Under the pieces are notes generated by a model. That model saw only the letters and a program-made list of their open reading frames with translations, was not told the origin of the DNA and made no database searches. This document shows positions 10,391 through 62,710 of a DNA stretch of 64,000 bases, piece by piece. This DNA is from Ignavibacteriota bacterium (GTDB lineage: Bacteria > Bacteroidota > Ignavibacteria > Palsa-1295). Position 1 is the first letter of the stretch. Each line of letters begins with the position of its first letter. The DNA lies in the NCBI GenBank assembly GCA_963736195.1, contig CAVTNP010000001.1:690133-754132 (forward strand). The letters run 5' to 3'. A program made the translations under genes and the position numbers.

Positions 10391-10776
10391 TCCTTCAGCC
10401 TGGCAACATAAGGCTTGGGCCTTGCCCAGTCGAGATCGCCTTTCGCCCATACATAAATGTAGCCGACAAGTAAAATTCCAAGAAACGTAAACATCTCCGC
10501 GATGGCGAACCAGCCCATGCGCTTAAATATGAGTGCCCATGGAAACAAAAACAGAATCTCGACATCGAACAAAATAAAGATCAACGCTACAACGTAATAC
10601 CGAATGTTGAACTTCACCCACGCGCCGCCGATCGGATCCTCACCGCATTCATAAGACGCAAGCTTGAATTGATTCGGATTCTTCGGACGCAAAAGCTTGC
10701 TCGTAAGCAGGCCACCCGCAACAAAAATAATTGCGAGTATCCCAAATGCAAATACGTGGCTGAATTCTCCTAACAT
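10312..10776 (-). CDS. nuoA: NADH-quinone oxidoreductase subunit A with a ~36-aa C-terminal extension encoded by the heptamer-repeat element
   Basis: Three TM helices and a conserved ...WAKGDLDWA end at residue 118. The reading frame then continues through the repeat (ITNYKFRIANYE...) to the stop at 10312. Confidence 0.8.
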   Translation of the reverse strand: MLGEFSHVFAFGILAIIFVAGGLLTSKLLRPKNPNQFKLASYECGEDPIGGAWVKFNIRYYVVALIFILFDVEILFLFPWALIFKRMGWFAIAEMFTFLGILLVGYIYVWAKGDLDWARPKPYVARLKDVVITNYKFRIANYESTANSIVRDSP

Positions 10777-30882: not shown

Positions 30883-30912
30883 CCCCCTCCTAAAGAAGGA
30901 GGGGGCTTTTTT
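30883..30912. promoter_or_regulatory. GC hairpin CCCCCTCC-TAAAGAA-GGAGGGGG in the 35-nt gap between the upstream lipoprotein gene and the ECF sigma gene; on the mRNA strand it sequesters the Shine-Dalgarno GGAGG of the sigma gene
   Basis: Read on the minus strand: UAA-AAAAGCCCCCUCCUUCUUUAGGAGGGGGAAUACUC-AUG. The 3' stem half contains GGAGG, 7 nt before the ATG. A near-identical hairpin occurs at 33489-33516. Confidence 0.45.
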
Positions 30913-33316: not shown

Positions 33317-33636
33317 AGCCGAATTTAAGTAAAAAAGTGAACAAAAATGGTTTGTTTCCAATGCCGCAGAGTTTCCGGAAATCCCCACACGTATAACTTG
33401 CCGGAAGCCGGGTAGAAAGTTTCTGGGAGGGGTAAAATTATTTGGGTGAAGAAGTAACGCAAGACAAAACAGAGTTCACTGAATTACACCCCCTCCTTCT
33501 TTAGGAGGGGCTTTTTCAGTGGACTCCATATAATTGACGCAACTTTCAGCATTCTAAAGTGTTCTTTAGATACGAGCTTTTCAGATTGACTCGTTTCGGG
33601 GCAGTTCATGAAAAGTCTGCTAAGGTCGATAATTAT

Positions 33637-35245: not shown

Positions 35246-35277
35246 GTTTCTGTTGAAATAAATAAGAATTGGCCTTG

Positions 35278-35312
35278 AAAGGGGAGGACGTGTTCCTCCC
35301 CTTTCTGTTATT
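35278..35312 (+). terminator. Rho-independent terminator (GGGGAGGAcgtgtTCCTCCCC + TTTCTGTTATT)
   Basis: A GC hairpin followed by a T-rich tract directly after the Kelch gene stop. It marks the left edge of an AT-rich island. Confidence 0.65.
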
Positions 35313-44994: not shown

Positions 44995-45633
44995 ATGACA
45001 CTACAGGCAGCGAGCATTTCGGCTCGCGGTAACGAGAAACACACGCGATTCATGGCCCTTCTGGAGCCGTGCCTTGCGAAGCTTTCCCGTTATTGCCATG
45101 CGATGACAAAGGATGTGGAATCGGGACGCGATCTGCTATCGGATGCGATCCTGCTCAGCTACGAGAACTTCGAAAGACTTCGAGCACCCGAAGCCTTTAC
45201 GAGCTATATCTTCACAACGGCGCGGCGGTTATTTTACCGGCGCGAACGGAGAAAAAAGTTCTGGGGTGTGCTCGGAAGCGAAGCGGAAACACTCGTGGAT
45301 GAGCGGGAACCCACGCCCGAAATGCGACTCGATCTCGAAGCGCTCGATCGCGCACTAACGCATTTACCCGAAAAACAACGCGAAGCCGTGATACTCTTCG
45401 AAATATCCGGACTCTCGCTTGCGGAAATTCGGGAAGTGCAAGGCGGATCGCTTTCGGGTGTGAAATCGCGCATCGTGAGAGGCCGCGAGAAGCTTGCGGT
45501 CCTGCTCGGTGAGCGGGAGTCTGAACAGCCGGGGACGACAGTTCGACAGCAGGCGCGGACGCCTGCTCCACGCGAGCACTCAACATCCTTTGAACGCGCA
45601 CAGGTCGCTACTCTAATAAGGGAGAAACTATGA
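44995..45633 (+). CDS. ECF-subfamily RNA polymerase sigma-70 factor (paralog of 30282-30875)
   Basis: Region 2 (LLSDAILLSYENF...YIFTTARRLFYRRERR) and region 4 (LSLAEIREVQGGSLSGVKSRIVRGREKL). It shares the unusual QGGxLSGVKSR block with the other ECF sigma. Confidence 0.85.
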   Translation: MTLQAASISARGNEKHTRFMALLEPCLAKLSRYCHAMTKDVESGRDLLSDAILLSYENFERLRAPEAFTSYIFTTARRLFYRRERRKKFWGVLGSEAETLVDEREPTPEMRLDLEALDRALTHLPEKQREAVILFEISGLSLAEIREVQGGSLSGVKSRIVRGREKLAVLLGERESEQPGTTVRQQARTPAPREHSTSFERAQVATLIREKL

Positions 45634-47978
45634 AGAACAAACCGCTTCAACCATCCGAGAAATTAGCGAAGCACTTCGCGGCATACCGCGAGGAAGCGCC
45701 GCTGATCTCTGCTCCCGAAGTCGAGAATCTCCTTGCCGGTAGTGCCACTGCTGACCACCCACGCAACGCATTTTCTTTCAGGAGAATTTTTATGACACTC
45801 AGCGGACTCGCCGGACTTGCGGCTATCAGCTACTTCGCATTCTTTAGTTCATCAAATGGGACCAATGGGACTACTACTATCAATGGGTCCCAAATGACCC
45901 ATCCGTCCCATAACACCCCGAATACTACGAAACTTTCGCAGCTTGCAACGCCAGCAAGCACGACCACGAAGCCCACCCCACAACTTCACATAAACGACAA
46001 CCCCCACGGCCCATGGAGCGCCGGCAACGACCAGTTCTACGCCGATCTCTCGCAGAAAGAATTAGCAAAGCTGGGAATTGTGGTTCATGGTGACTCCATA
46101 TTGACCTATAAACTCAATGATAAGGATAGTGTCGTATGGACGCAATTTTCTGAATATTCGGTTCCGGGTATAAAGTACAAAGGTCATTCCATTGGCGGTG
46201 GGGGGAAGTTGGCCTCTGCGCCGCAGGGCGTGGAAGCTCACCGCTTTTATCCGATTCTCATGACCTACTCGAACGGCAATGGCGCAGCCTATCGCATCGA
46301 GGAAGGTGACCAAAGTGAGTGTGGAATGATCGGGCCGGAAGATCTGAATAAAGCATTCCGTGCATGGCTCGAAACTCCTGGAACTCCCGGGCTGCGGACA
46401 CTGGGATTTACCTCCTCATCCACAATGTCGTCGCCGTGCAAAAACTGTCCTCCCATCGAAAGCGACACTATTAAGATCACGGTCGGAAAAGATCTGGCGC
46501 CTTCTCCATTCCCATTAATTGCACCAAAAATCGATAGTCTCTCCGGCGATCTTCAGGGTGCATTATTGCAGCTCGCTCATTATTATGAAGGCAGCATAGC
46601 TATACAACCTTCGGTTACGTGGCCCAAAAATCTAACTATAAAAGTGGATACGTTTACCGCTCGGAACTTGCTCGATCAAATGGACGCCGAGGAGAATGGT
46701 GGAGTAGAACAGCATTTGCGTTCGATCATGGCTCGCTTGAACGAACTCATTCCCGTCATTGTGCGGCCGCACGGCGGTTCCGGCGCACCCGATTCGAACG
46801 ACTACATCTTCTGGTATGAACCAAGCGATGAGCTGTTCGATGCGTTGCCCTCGGCGCAAGCATCAATCATTCGAGCAAAGTTGAATACGCCACCGCATTG
46901 CCTATCCATGCCGAACGATGTGCTGAAGTCAGCGGAGATAACCTATTGTGTTGCCGAAACCCAAGAGGTACAAGTGAGGGTGCAAGATTTAACGGGCAAA
47001 CAACTTATTGGTATGTCGCAACTTGCATCTACTGGAGATAATATCCTGCAATTCACAACAGAGACACTTCCATCGGGCATGTACATCGTCACCGTGCAAG
47101 ATCATGACGGCACGGAACGCTCGCAAAGGCTGTGGGTCGAGAACGCACATCCGAAATCCTATAAAGACGCGATTTGGGATAAGAATGCACCGCACGCACC
47201 CAACCAAATGTGGTTTGTGAATACCGACGATCCAACTCCTGTGAATGATCTGCCCGTGGAGCATTCGACTTCACTTCTCATTCCGAGTTTGTCGTTGGAT
47301 TCGGCGGCTCTTTCCGGGATCGGAGTACAAAGCAATAGTGTACTATCCGCGTATTACACTCAAGGCTCTCAACCAAATGCAGTTAACTACATGGGTATTG
47401 TGAGAAGTTGGGGAGCAGTTATTCAGACCCTTGCAAAGAGTTCGGTGACTGGTGTCACTGTCCCTATATTCGAACCGTCATTAGTGACAGATGGAATCGG
47501 TCGTAAGCGAGTATTCGCGGGTGATTCCAATTATAGCGAACTTGTTCCAATTCTTCTTCGCGCTGGAACTCCAAGTGATACCATCGGAGCTACGGATCTT
47601 ATTTTCTGGTACAAGCCAACGCCAGAATTTCTTGCAGATCTATCGGATTCTGCCCGAGCCATAGCACAGAGTCTCGCCAGTGTCAATGGTGGAACTAACA
47701 CAACCAAGGTACATGGTTCGATCCAGCAGGCCGCGGTATTCCCAAATCCATCGAAAGGGAACTTGTCCGTGCAGCTAACGCTGGGCGGTGCGCGCACCCT
47801 TACGTTCACGCTTCGGAATTTATTAGGCCAGCAAGCGGCGCCATCGGTTCAAGCGCGGATGGATGGCACGGGCGAGCAGTCGCTTGATTTCAGCACGGTT
47901 CCGGAAGGCGTGTATCTCCTCGATATTTCCTCCGATCAGGGCGAGCGGTATATCGAGCGGGTGGTGATTGCACATTAA
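45630..47978 (+). CDS. Anti-sigma-like single-pass membrane protein with large extracytoplasmic domain and T9SS C-terminal sorting domain
   Basis: Its start overlaps the sigma stop (ATGA). There is a cytoplasmic segment of about 50 aa, then a TM helix IFMTLSGLAGLAAISYFAFF, then about 700 aa ending in a Por-type tail ...VFPNPSKGNLSVQLTL...GVYLLDISSDQGERYIERVVIAH. It is paralogous to 62712->64000. Confidence 0.6.
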   Translation: MKNKPLQPSEKLAKHFAAYREEAPLISAPEVENLLAGSATADHPRNAFSFRRIFMTLSGLAGLAAISYFAFFSSSNGTNGTTTINGSQMTHPSHNTPNTTKLSQLATPASTTTKPTPQLHINDNPHGPWSAGNDQFYADLSQKELAKLGIVVHGDSILTYKLNDKDSVVWTQFSEYSVPGIKYKGHSIGGGGKLASAPQGVEAHRFYPILMTYSNGNGAAYRIEEGDQSECGMIGPEDLNKAFRAWLETPGTPGLRTLGFTSSSTMSSPCKNCPPIESDTIKITVGKDLAPSPFPLIAPKIDSLSGDLQGALLQLAHYYEGSIAIQPSVTWPKNLTIKVDTFTARNLLDQMDAEENGGVEQHLRSIMARLNELIPVIVRPHGGSGAPDSNDYIFWYEPSDELFDALPSAQASIIRAKLNTPPHCLSMPNDVLKSAEITYCVAETQEVQVRVQDLTGKQLIGMSQLASTGDNILQFTTETLPSGMYIVTVQDHDGTERSQRLWVENAHPKSYKDAIWDKNAPHAPNQMWFVNTDDPTPVNDLPVEHSTSLLIPSLSLDSAALSGIGVQSNSVLSAYYTQGSQPNAVNYMGIVRSWGAVIQTLAKSSVTGVTVPIFEPSLVTDGIGRKRVFAGDSNYSELVPILLRAGTPSDTIGATDLIFWYKPTPEFLADLSDSARAIAQSLASVNGGTNTTKVHGSIQQAAVFPNPSKGNLSVQLTLGGARTLTFTLRNLLGQQAAPSVQARMDGTGEQSLDFSTVPEGVYLLDISSDQGERYIERVVIAH

Positions 47979-52101: not shown

Positions 52102-52458
52102 TTATTCCGGAGTAGCGCTGCGTTCGACATTATGCCTAATCTGCGCACCCGGATGGGCATGCGTCTCTTTGTGTTTCTTCAACAGCTTTTCGATAACCTT
52201 CATCGAGATGTCAATGGCCTTGTGAGATTCCTCAGCGGATTCCTTTACCTTCAGCGTATCGCCGGGGACATGTATTATCGCTTCGAAGGTCTTTTTATGT
52301 CCATTCGAGCCTTCCTGATCGACGATGAATTCCGCGCTGATAATACTGGAGTGCTCGCCATTGGTAAATTTACTTGCGATGTGCTCGAATTCCGTGGTGA
52401 TGTATTTCTGAATGGCTTCGCGGGCGGCTTCGTGGCGAACTTGAATTCTGATATTCAT
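52102..52458 (-). CDS. hpf: Ribosome hibernation promoting factor (HPF/RaiA family)
   Basis: 118 aa. MNIRIQVRHEAAREAIQKYITTEFEHIASKF and a beta-alpha-beta-beta-beta-alpha pattern typical of HPF. Confidence 0.85.
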   Translation of the reverse strand: MNIRIQVRHEAAREAIQKYITTEFEHIASKFTNGEHSSIISAEFIVDQEGSNGHKKTFEAIIHVPGDTLKVKESAEESHKAIDISMKVIEKLLKKHKETHAHPGAQIRHNVERSATPE

Positions 52459-52640: not shown

Positions 52641-53693
52641 TTAGGAAGGCTCCGTTCCGGATCGTGGATGTGCCTGATCATAGACGGATTTCATGCGTTC
52701 GACGGTCAAATGCGTGTAGCGTTGGGTGGTCCGGAGGGATTCGTGGCCTAAAATCTCCTTCACAGCCCGCAGATCGGCACCGTGATCGAGCAAGTGGGTA
52801 GCCGTTGTGTGACGAAGCATGTGCGGATGAGCGTGCGGCATGTCCGGCTCATGCGCAAATGCCTTGGAGACAATATCATAGACCATGCGCGGGGTGAGGC
52901 GATTGCCGTTCTTGAGCAGAAAGAGTGCTTGGGTATCTCCCGAACCACCCCCCAACCCCCGCCTTGGAAAGGCGGGGGAGCTTAATGAAGAGTTCTTTCT
53001 TTCTTTCAGATATTCTTTGATCGCCTCGACCGCTTTTGCGCCGATGGGTACGATGCGCTGCTTCGATCCTTTGCCCAGCACGCGAACAGTGTTCGCTTTA
53101 AGATCGAGTTCGCTGAGATCGATCGAGCATAGTTCCGAGCGGCGAAGTCCGCTGGAATAGAGTAGTTCCAGCACTGCCCGATCGCGCGCTTCTTCCATGC
53201 TTCCCCTCTTCTTTAGGGAGGGGGTTGGGCCGGCACTATTCCCAGCCAGCACATTGGCCATGGCGCGTTCGCTTACGACATTCGGCAAATTCTTTTCTGC
53301 CTTGGGTGTTTTCAGCAAACGAGCAGCATTGAACTCAAAAATTCCCTGCTTCACTAAAAATTTGACGAAAGACCGCACCGCAGCAAGCTTACGCCCGATA
53401 GAGCTTGCCTTCAGAGTTTTTACATTGCCTACGGTCATTCTCACTTCTCCTCTCCCTTTGGGAGAGCCTGGGTGAGGGATCGTTTGTTCTGAAAGCGTGT
53501 GGACATAACGGCGAAGAGCATACAGGTCATCATGCGTGCCGGATAGTACCATCCGTTCGGACTTTAGGATGCGGTAGAGATCGACAAGGTCGCCTTCGTA
53601 GGCTTCGATCGTTTTAGGGCTGGCCTCGCGCTCGTGTTCGAGGTATTCCAGGAAACTGCGAAGCCATCGGGGAAAATCGGTGTAGAAATCCAT
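52641..53693 (-). CDS. xerD: Tyrosine site-specific recombinase XerD/XerC, carrying two short in-frame GC-hairpin insertions
   Basis: Catalytic blocks ARDRAVLELLYSSGLRRSEL, HMLRHTTATHLLDHGADLRAVKEILGHESLRTTQRYTH (R..HxxR..Y). At 350 aa it is about 50 aa longer than canonical XerD because of two inserts (GPTPSLKKRG and SLSSPAFPRRGLGGGSG). Confidence 0.85.
   Translation of the reverse strand: MDFYTDFPRWLRSFLEYLEHEREASPKTIEAYEGDLVDLYRILKSERMVLSGTHDDLYALRRYVHTLSEQTIPHPGSPKGRGEVRMTVGNVKTLKASSIGRKLAAVRSFVKFLVKQGIFEFNAARLLKTPKAEKNLPNVVSERAMANVLAGNSAGPTPSLKKRGSMEEARDRAVLELLYSSGLRRSELCSIDLSELDLKANTVRVLGKGSKQRIVPIGAKAVEAIKEYLKERKNSSLSSPAFPRRGLGGGSGDTQALFLLKNGNRLTPRMVYDIVSKAFAHEPDMPHAHPHMLRHTTATHLLDHGADLRAVKEILGHESLRTTQRYTHLTVERMKSVYDQAHPRSGTEPS
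52946..52978. repeat. GC hairpin element (CCCCCAACCCCCGCCttggaaaGGCGGGGGAG) inserted in-frame inside xerD
   Basis: An 8-bp perfect GC stem within the coding sequence. It encodes the extra peptide ...SSPAFPRRGLGGGSG... that is absent from canonical XerD. It shares the GGGGGTTGGGG tail with intergenic hairpins. Confidence 0.6.
53203..53233. repeat. GC hairpin element (CCCCTCttctttagGGAGGGGGTTGGGCCGG) inserted in-frame inside xerD
   Basis: Its stem and loop are almost identical to the intergenic hairpins at 30883 and 33489. It encodes the extra peptide ...GPTPSLKKRG... Confidence 0.6.
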
Positions 53694-60576: not shown

Positions 60577-60614
60577 GAAGGCCCCCCTCACTTTAGTGGT
60601 GAGGGGGGCCTTCT
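60577..60614. terminator. Long perfect hairpin GAAGGCCCCCCTCAC-tttag-GTGAGGGGGGCCTTC between convergent htrA and pirin genes
   Basis: A 15-bp perfect stem. It lacks a clean T-tract but is positioned as a bidirectional terminator. Confidence 0.55.
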
Positions 60615-62607: not shown

Positions 62608-62710
62608 GCCCCTCTCCCTGCAGGGAGAGGGGTTGGGGTGAGGTTTTTCGGATTATCGACCGGCCTCATCCCTTTGCCCCCTTCTTCCCTGCTGGGAGAA
62701 GGGGGTTTTT
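62608..62710. terminator. Pair of GC hairpins (GCCCCTCTCCCtgcaGGGAGAGGGG and CCCCCTTCTTCCCtgctGGGAGAAGGGGG+TTTTT) between convergent tmk and the T9SS gene
   Basis: Each hairpin has a T-tract on one side and an A-tract on the other, so together they act as bidirectional terminators. Both belong to the GC-hairpin family (GGGGTTGGGG tail). Confidence 0.6.

Follow-up and report, generated by a model that had tools for sequence, protein, structure and literature searches.

A 350-aa tyrosine recombinase gene of an Ignavibacteriota bacterium contains three short repeat modules that are translated in frame as part of the protein. The gene, which is xerC-like, lies on the minus strand (52641-53693) of a 64,000-nucleotide stretch of contig CAVTNP010000001.1 (assembly GCA_963736195.1, positions 690,133 to 754,132), hereafter the window, and we refer to the three places in it that hold a module as sites A, B and C. 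By structure, geometry, sequence and repetition the unit, a hairpin followed by GTTGGG, is the BoxC/PIT/TM motif, in which a third block is predicted to fold back on the hairpin as an intrastrand triplex. The element itself is not new; what has not been described is the situation, a known enigmatic repeat translated within conserved proteins. From the comparison with orthologs we think it likely that these triplex-motif repeats are gained and replaced through structure-prone replication and repair, that they survive in coding DNA only as in-frame, stop-free copies in permissive loops, and that a loop once occupied becomes a hotspot. The motif is strikingly conserved in bacteria and has no established function or mechanism of spread, and so far it has passed for a curiosity of intergenic DNA with a link to instability. 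The coding copies provide a natural assay, in that filled and empty orthologs in a fixed frame constrain gain, replacement and decay. They extend the idea of "selfish DNA inside proteins", which has so far come chiefly from Rickettsia, to a motif of many phyla, and they bear on the evolution of protein loops as well as giving a handle on how the motif is propagated.

Translated modules in a xerC-like gene

Pfam finds the two-domain Xer architecture in the protein, with Phage_int_SAM_1 (PF02899) and Phage_integrase (PF00589), and the identification of the gene is based on this together with the open reading frame (ORF), NCBIfam and synteny. A preliminary description of this DNA took the gene for xerD, but the NCBIfam score is higher for XerC (303.8 bits, cut-off 335.15) than for XerD (TIGR02225, 246.3 bits, cut-off 329.6), both scores lying below the curated cut-offs. 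Metagenome-assembled genomes (MAGs) of Kapabacteria and related Bacteroidota supply the nearest relatives, which are labelled XerC in their sources, so that by sequence comparison the gene is XerC-like rather than XerD. Close homologs range from 302 to 377 aa, with insert-free relatives at 305-312 aa, and in an alignment of 40 homologs the length variation is confined to three places, which are the three hairpin sites. The protein had been described as about 50 aa longer than the canonical enzyme; this holds only against E. coli XerD, and the excess over insert-free relatives is about 40 aa. The catalytic residues are intact, as was claimed, and R184, K211, H291, R294, H317 and Y326 are all invariant in the alignment.

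Site A (53450-53478, plus strand, with the G-rich strand antisense to the gene) holds a complete triplex motif, CTCTCCC ttt GGGAGAG cctgg GTGAGGG. Its hairpin, CTCTCCC-ttt-GGGAGAG, occupies 53450-53466 of an insert region at 53440-53480. Read on the gene strand the module is CCCTCACCC-AGG-CTCTCCC-AAA-GGGAGAG, with the peptide PHPGSPKGRGEV, and the motif codes for PHPGSPKGR within the insert GSPKGRGEVRMTV (aa 76-88, nt 53430-53468); the window peptide at this site is PHPGSPKGRGEVRMTV (residues about 73-88). Site C (52943-52978, minus strand, with the G-rich strand in the sense of the gene) is also complete and reads CCCCCGCCTT tcc AAGGCGGGGG ttg GGGGGTGGTT. On the plus strand its hairpin is CCCCCGCCTT-gga-AAGGCGGGGG, at 52956-52978, with a perfect 10-bp stem, and the peptide is SSPAFPRRGLGGGSG (aa 238-252). 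Between them, site B (53203-53229, plus strand, G-rich strand again antisense) reads CCCCTC ttctttagg GAGGGG G TT GGG, its hairpin at 53203-53223 having a 6-bp stem and a 9-nt loop before GTTGGG, and codes for GPTPSLKKRGS (aa 155-165) in the interdomain linker. We regard site B as a decayed copy because its stem is only 6 bp, its third strand is cut down to GGG and it fails the full triplex rule. The three copies lie within 540 nt.

The preliminary description had reported two inserts, those at sites B and C, both of which exist and are translated in frame within the 350-aa ORF as stated, but the third, at site A, had been overlooked. It was right in calling the site C hairpin perfect and placed it 2 nt off, at 52954-52976; the site B hairpin, also called perfect, has the short stem, 9-nt loop and truncated tail given above. 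The GTTGGG that was said to follow both hairpins follows that of site B, and at site C it does so only on the opposite, gene-sense strand.

A module of this kind is free of stop codons in five of its six frames and codes for Pro/Ser/Leu/Thr and then Gly/Arg/Glu. In-frame copies of 3n nt can therefore survive as flexible loops, with the catalytic core undisturbed. In an AlphaFold2 model of the protein (mean pLDDT 83) the three inserts are coil between helices and are its least confident parts (residues 70-95 at site A, pLDDT 41-53; residues 150-164 at site B, pLDDT 56; residues 238-267 at site C, pLDDT 54), which bears out the earlier placement of the inserts in loops between conserved blocks. 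Compared with the E. coli XerD structure 1A0P, site B is the interdomain linker, lengthened by 9 aa, and site C, where 12 aa are added, is a loop preceded by the β-hairpin and then a helix. No function of the modules in the host protein is implied. Annotation is affected all the same: protein lengths are inflated, spurious low-complexity loops appear, and model scores fall below cut-off, as with this XerC.

The BoxC/PIT/TM motif has been known since the 1990s, and earlier work on BoxC and PIT is reportedly that of Bachellier and of Hoyne and Maher. The BoxC repeat of E. coli was re-described as the potential intrastrand triplex (PIT) element and then as TM, or TMECO (Holder et al. 2015, NAR 43:10126, PMC4666352). 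The third block can pair with the purine arm via G.G-C, A.A-T and T.A-T triads, and in vitro TMECO DNA in single-stranded form does fold into a stable triplex (PMC4666352). E. coli MG1655 has 23 copies, "always located intergenically", with no associated transposase, and TM loci are unusually variable between E. coli strains, the motif being linked to local sequence instability (PMC4666352). The modules described here are all built likewise, in 30-37 nt: an arm rich in C is followed by its G-rich complement and, after another 2-5 nt, by a G-rich tail (GGGGTGAGG or GGGGGGTGG). The geometry required by ITxF (stems of 6-15 nt with at most one mismatch, loops of 1-6 nt) is found at sites A and C and in an intergenic copy between convergent genes (62609-62643, plus strand; CCCCTCTCC ctgcag GGAGAGGGG tt GGGGTGAGG, or, in an alternative parsing, CCCCTCTCCC-TGCA-GGGAGAGGGG-TT-GGGGTGAGG), which is the clearest triplex motif of the window. 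With the third strand antiparallel to the purine arm, a scan with the triplex rule gives 7/7 valid triads at site A (stem 7, loops 3 and 5), 9/10 at site C (stem 10, loops 3 and 3) and 9/9 at 62609 (stem 9, loops 6 and 2), site B alone failing. Site A is identical to E. coli TMECO type B at 27/34 nt and the 62609 copy, which contains the motif found across phyla, to type A at 31/37 nt; site C, whose stem is a variant, matches TMECO sequences at only 20-22/36 nt.

The likeness to BoxC/PIT/TM thus extends to the order of blocks (pyrimidine arm, loop, purine arm, short loop, G-rich third strand), to the core sequence CCCTCTCCC / GGGAGAGGG / GGGTGAGGG, and to multiple copies with unrelated flanks in either orientation, without mobility genes and with local sequence variability. 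The differences are that the stems here include the variants CCCCCGCC and CCCCCTCC, with the third strand kept, and that the E. coli copies are intergenic whereas those in the xerC gene are translated in frame in a conserved protein, at recurrent hotspots. Intergenic location has been described for the E. coli copies but does not belong to the structural definition of the family, and it is the sole described property that the modules here lack. One TMECO variant was found in 4,605 of 5,426 complete E. coli genomes (4,612 matching records), and the 12 records listed have no annotated feature under the motif. We found no report of the motif in coding sequence in the literature, which is weak evidence given that subscription journals were thinly covered.

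Two further hairpins of the window are relatives without a third strand. One (30883-30905, plus strand) is CCCCCTCCTAAAGAAGGAGGGGG followed by CTTTTTT, and is identical at 23/23 nt to the hairpin of full triplex motifs in two of the orthologous loci described below (L002, at 17939, and L005, at 2545). The other (33490-33510, plus strand) is CCCCTCCTTCTTTAGGAGGGG followed by CTTTTT and lies between divergent ORFs. The two have the same stem (CCCCCTCC/GGAGGGGG) with the loop flipped (TAAAGAA vs TTCTTTA) and the same downstream CTTTTT on the plus strand. The copies at 30883, 33490 and 62609, and a 24-nt string common to 62609 and a coding copy in locus L001, support the earlier assignment of the xerC modules to the same family as the intergenic hairpins. 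The window has 6 perfect hairpins with a C-arm and a G-arm where dinucleotide shuffles give about 0.05, and 3 full triplex motifs (sites A and C, and 62609) where 20 shuffles give 0. Of the nine pyrimidine/purine hairpins in the window, three are coding copies, all of them in xerC, and six are intergenic; the probability of at least 3 of 9 hairpins in this 1-kb gene is about 3e-4 under a uniform distribution, in a test made post hoc. At gathering thresholds Rfam has no match anywhere in the window, and hence no curated RNA family covers the hairpins.

Filled, empty and replaced sites

Orthologs of the gene came from seven fetched loci (L001-L007) and from a metagenome scan, which gave only five more usable full-length xerC genes (L008-L012), making 13 aligned genes with that of the window. 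The gene order ybeY-DUF494-xerC-hpf is kept in all seven fetched loci. Site A is filled in the window, L002 and L004 and empty in the other ten orthologs (L001, L003, L005-L012), a difference of 11 codons. Site B is without a module in L001, L003 and L007, and in L008 and L010 no module could be made out; the copy of L005 is intact and runs opposite to the decayed module of the window, and six orthologs have an unrelated long GGATGAAGG...CCTTCATCC palindrome with a folding energy down to -44 kcal/mol. Site C has a module in all 13 genes, in several forms, and the copy here goes back to the ancestor of the clade as a whole and is no recent gain. Its stem is CCCCCGCC in the window, L001 and L002, CCCCCTCC in L005 and L006, CCCCCTCC with small hairpins nested in the loops in L008 and L009, and CCCTCTCCC(CC) in L003, L004 and L012, with degenerate forms in L007 and L011. 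The loops of the orthologs are therefore found empty, with the triplex motif in either orientation, with other stems, with nested hairpins or with an unrelated long palindrome. These comparisons agree with the preliminary description in that the inserts are lineage-specific, orthologs of 80-88 % identity and conserved synteny having empty sites or different modules, and none of the orthologs was found to carry the same segments without palindromic DNA.

The state of the sites conflicts with the gene tree, a neighbour-joining tree on 264 ungapped codons. The sister pairs L002/L004 and L001/L003 differ in their site C module, and the sisters L005 and L006 are entirely different at site B. At site C the window differs from L002 and L001 at 1-2 of 37 nt, while synonymous third positions differ at 42-43 % (binomial P about 5e-8 and 4e-7), so that the site C module has diverged by 3-5 % against 37-43 % at synonymous third positions, about ten times less. 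This contrast sits in a loop whose peptide is otherwise free to vary, and it shows the module DNA itself to be under a force that homogenises or constrains it.

The GGATGAAGGn...CCTTCATCCn palindromes form a second, unrelated repeat family in the linker loop at site B (L002 at about 10460-10560, L006, L009, L011 and L012). They are translated ..MKDEG...SSFIPHP.. and have folding energies of -21 to -44 kcal/mol in L002, L006, L009 and L011; in L011 the palindrome is doubled, L004 and L012 have lost part of it, and the window has no copy. At site C (about aa 225-250) extra small hairpins stand in loop 1 of L008 (TGCAGCGAAGCGGAA) and L009 (CGCAGCGAAGCG), and L009 has one more hairpin, GCATCG-CCGA-CGATGC, inside loop 2, which separates purine arm and third strand, so that repeats are inserted into repeats.

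The fetched loci also have modules in other genes. In L001 a HgmA-like gene has an in-frame module that adds 12 aa (GSLTPTPLPAERGA) and is identical over 24 nt to the 62609 copy of the window. In L002 an intact in-frame module adds 8 aa, PPTPSFFRRGS, to a gene with a Por_Secre_tail domain (PorTail), with the peptide and frame of xerC site B, and a YbbR-like protein has an in-frame module at its C-terminus. At xerC site A, HgmA and PorTail the junctions between filled and empty sites are replacement-type indels. Neither target-site duplications nor terminal repeats beyond the hairpin were seen at these junctions, at a divergence of 13-22 % over which short ones may have eroded, and among the 12 orthologs, metagenome scan included, no pair of sequences is close enough to show a fresh junction. 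Immediately 5' of the module point, empty sites have CACCC (site A in L001, L003 and L006; PorTail in L001 and in the window, 45630-47978). It resembles the C-rich third-strand block of the module (CCTCACCCC / CCACCCCCC) and may represent microhomology or a target preference.

A phylogenetic scan with CCTCACCCCNNCCCCTCTCCC, in one genome per species, gave at least 120 matching stretches, with 138 copies among the matches listed. These include Xanthomonadaceae, Chloroflexota, Planctomycetota, Cyanobacteria, Acidobacteriota, Myxococcota, Leptospiraceae, Elusimicrobia, Ignavibacteria, Chitinophagaceae and others, and nearly all of the 138 copies consist of the motif, a variable loop and a closing GGGAGAGGGG or close variant, with unrelated flanks. 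Some 48 % of the 111 testable copies lie inside an open frame of at least 900 nt, against 82 % of random positions; because long spurious ORFs in GC-rich genomes confound this test it served only to pick candidates, three of which were then confirmed with Pfam. In the aconitase of an Anaerolineales genome (L099) five tandem 33-nt copies are in frame. In a Leptospiraceae xanthine dehydrogenase (L098) one in-frame copy lies within the MoCoBD_2 domain. In an aspartokinase/diaminopimelate decarboxylase fusion of Dokdonella (L102) there is one in-frame copy, and the Dyella homolog (L038) has none at that position. The aconitase copies (6244-6396 of contig DAOUCM010000240.1) form a head-to-tail array, (GSPxGRGEGVR)x5, near the N-terminus, and the Pfam Aconitase match resumes right after it. 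Two or three copies within 70-600 nt are found in L036, L039, L048, L070, L074, L080, L112, L123, L134 and L135, with a regular spacing in L112 (168 nt) and L123 (140 nt), and such clusters echo the paired copies of E. coli and the three xerC copies.

Proposed gain and replacement, and alternative explanations

These patterns suggest that the modules would be copied, replaced and homogenised rather than moved by cut-and-paste transposition. We infer copying or conversion because the junctions are of the replacement type, module divergence is low, loops are flipped between copies with the same stem (30883 and 33490; xerC site B and the PorTail copy of L002) and hairpins are nested within hairpins. 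Single-stranded DNA would fold into a hairpin or triplex and so nucleate template switching, or gene conversion from one copy to another, and a copy that is in frame, free of stops and in a permissive loop would persist. If copying or conversion is nucleated by folding in this way, an occupied loop would act as a self-perpetuating hotspot. The pattern fits the published link of the motif to local instability.

Several points weigh against this reading. The copying mechanism is read from patterns only, and triplex formation by these particular sequences is a prediction; the triplex of TMECO was not detected in vivo in E. coli (PMC4666352). The site C stem CCCCCGCC has a C.G interruption facing a T of the third strand, and site B does not satisfy the triplex rule. 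The low divergence of the modules could reflect selection on DNA, RNA or peptide, and part of the incongruence with the gene tree could be due to homologous recombination between lineages instead of recurrent events. The view of xerC as a hotspot depends on 64 kb and on loci that were chosen around xerC.

We also put forward, as a conjecture that we ourselves find somewhat doubtful, that the motif may be a self-propagating DNA module without a dedicated enzyme, which is copied by structure-induced template switching and regularly writes Pro/Gly-rich loops of 8-17 residues into essential enzymes. If this were true, coding copies with insert-free orthologs, as in xerC, would be the first exact 'before and after' junctions for the spread of the motif. 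On this conjecture the clustering of three sites in a site-specific recombinase gene might come from local self-seeding, or the motif might be connected with Xer activity.

The modules might instead be copies of a currently active, genome-specific mobile hairpin, like a miniature inverted-repeat transposable element (MITE) or a Rickettsia palindromic element (RPE), that transposes into ORFs in frame, and the preliminary description had taken them to suggest an actively spreading element in this genome. Such an element would account for the presence/absence polymorphism, for both orientations, for the same module in unrelated genes and in intergenic DNA, and for the 24-nt identity between copies of different species. 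Against this, neither terminal inverted repeats beyond the hairpin nor target-site duplications were seen at the junctions compared, at 13-22 % divergence, the junctions are of the replacement type, and the modules are only 30-37 nt long. The family is moreover found in many phyla and is not specific to this genome, the site C copy is ancestral to the clade, and no other gene of the window has a copy. MITEs and small intragenic repeats such as ERIC, Correia, Nezha and QMITE also form stem-loops and are occasionally fused in frame with host ORFs (PMC10969869, PMC2229807). MITEs share with the modules that they are short, non-autonomous repeats capable of stem-loops. They differ in that a MITE ends in inverted repeats, is flanked by target-site duplications and has a cognate transposase, and the modules here show nothing of the kind. 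The RPEs, of about 150 bp, are found only in Rickettsia and encode conserved peptide domains (Ogata et al. 2000, reviewed in PMC10969869). The comparison with RPEs made earlier is apt as far as behaviour goes, since both are palindromic repeats that occur intergenically and in frame in housekeeping ORFs, with an added peptide compatible with fold and function. The modules are nevertheless not RPEs: they are much shorter, occur in many phyla, have a triplex-type third block and are unrelated to RPEs in sequence, an NCBIfam scan of the window protein having found recombinase families only and no RPE family. REP/RAYT systems are recognised by repeats whose 5' end is of a conserved GTAG type and by REPs on either side of a cognate RAYT gene, which codes for a Y1 transposase; the modules of the window and the listed copies from other bacteria show no apparent GTAG at their ends. 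As the literature on the motif also reports no association with a transposase, we consider active transposition unlikely.

Selection offers another explanation, in which the modules are cis-acting signals or functional peptides, for example a pause in transcription or translation at a domain boundary, a protein-binding site or a flexible linker. The module DNA is far more conserved than synonymous sites and its core is conserved across phyla, site B is the interdomain linker, and the site C motif is kept in 13/13 aligned genes, all of which speaks for this explanation. Sites A and B are, however, empty in many close orthologs, the orientation varies at the same site, and unrelated palindromes replace the motif. 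PIT elements had neither promoter nor terminator activity in E. coli in earlier work (PMC4666352), and the peptides are predicted to be disordered. Rho-independent terminators resemble some of the intergenic copies, as 30883, 33490 and the minus-strand reading of 62609 consist of a GC stem and a T-run. The three intragenic copies differ in having no T-run on either strand, and as terminators they were ruled out on this ground; nor do the hairpins at 30883 and 33490 stand where they could terminate the neighbouring ORFs, which at 30883 both lie on the minus strand and at 33490 diverge. We judge it improbable that selection of this kind explains the modules.

Codons for Pro (CCN) and Gly (GGN) are reverse complements of each other. 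A loop rich in Pro and then in Gly, as these peptides are, could for this reason mimic a hairpin by chance, with no repeat element involved. The three-block architecture with valid triads was found 3 times against 0 in 20 shuffles, the modules are nearly identical to intergenic copies and to TMECO of E. coli, orthologs have empty sites, and the DNA is conserved beyond what codon degeneracy needs. An artefact of Pro/Gly codon complementarity was rejected on the shuffle test and on the divergence of the modules relative to synonymous sites, and chance is accordingly a very improbable source of the pattern. An assembly or sequencing artefact, such as homopolymer errors or chimeric joins at G/C runs, comes to mind with a MAG as source and long-read assemblies among the related contigs, but is barely credible given that the same modules are at the same sites and in frame in independent JGI, ENA and NCBI assemblies of different samples, with the frame kept through every module.

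Neighbouring genes and other hairpins of the window

Directly downstream of xerC is an hpf/RaiA-like ORF (52102-52458), and this position is taken by a Ribosomal_S30AE gene in the window as well as in each of the seven fetched loci. Among PDB sequences the window XerC is matched best by chain 14 of 9i5v (E 1.3e-44, 284 aligned residues), a chain of 401 residues deposited as 'Ribosome-associated translation inhibitor RaiA'. Together with the adjacency of xerC and hpf, this match suggests a XerC-HPF fusion or a read-through annotation in some relative.

Next to the intergenic motif at 62609 there is a second pyrimidine/purine hairpin (62676-62706, plus strand), GCCCCCTTCTTCC ctgct GGGAGAAGGGGGT followed by TTTTATT. 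Two other strong intergenic hairpins, not of the triplex type, are found at 60577-60613 and 35277-35305; one of them has a 15-bp stem, GAAGGCCCCCCTCAC..GTGAGGGGGGCCTTC, and lies between convergent ORFs, and the other is an 11-bp purine-first hairpin, GAAAGGGGAGG..CCTCCCCTTTC.

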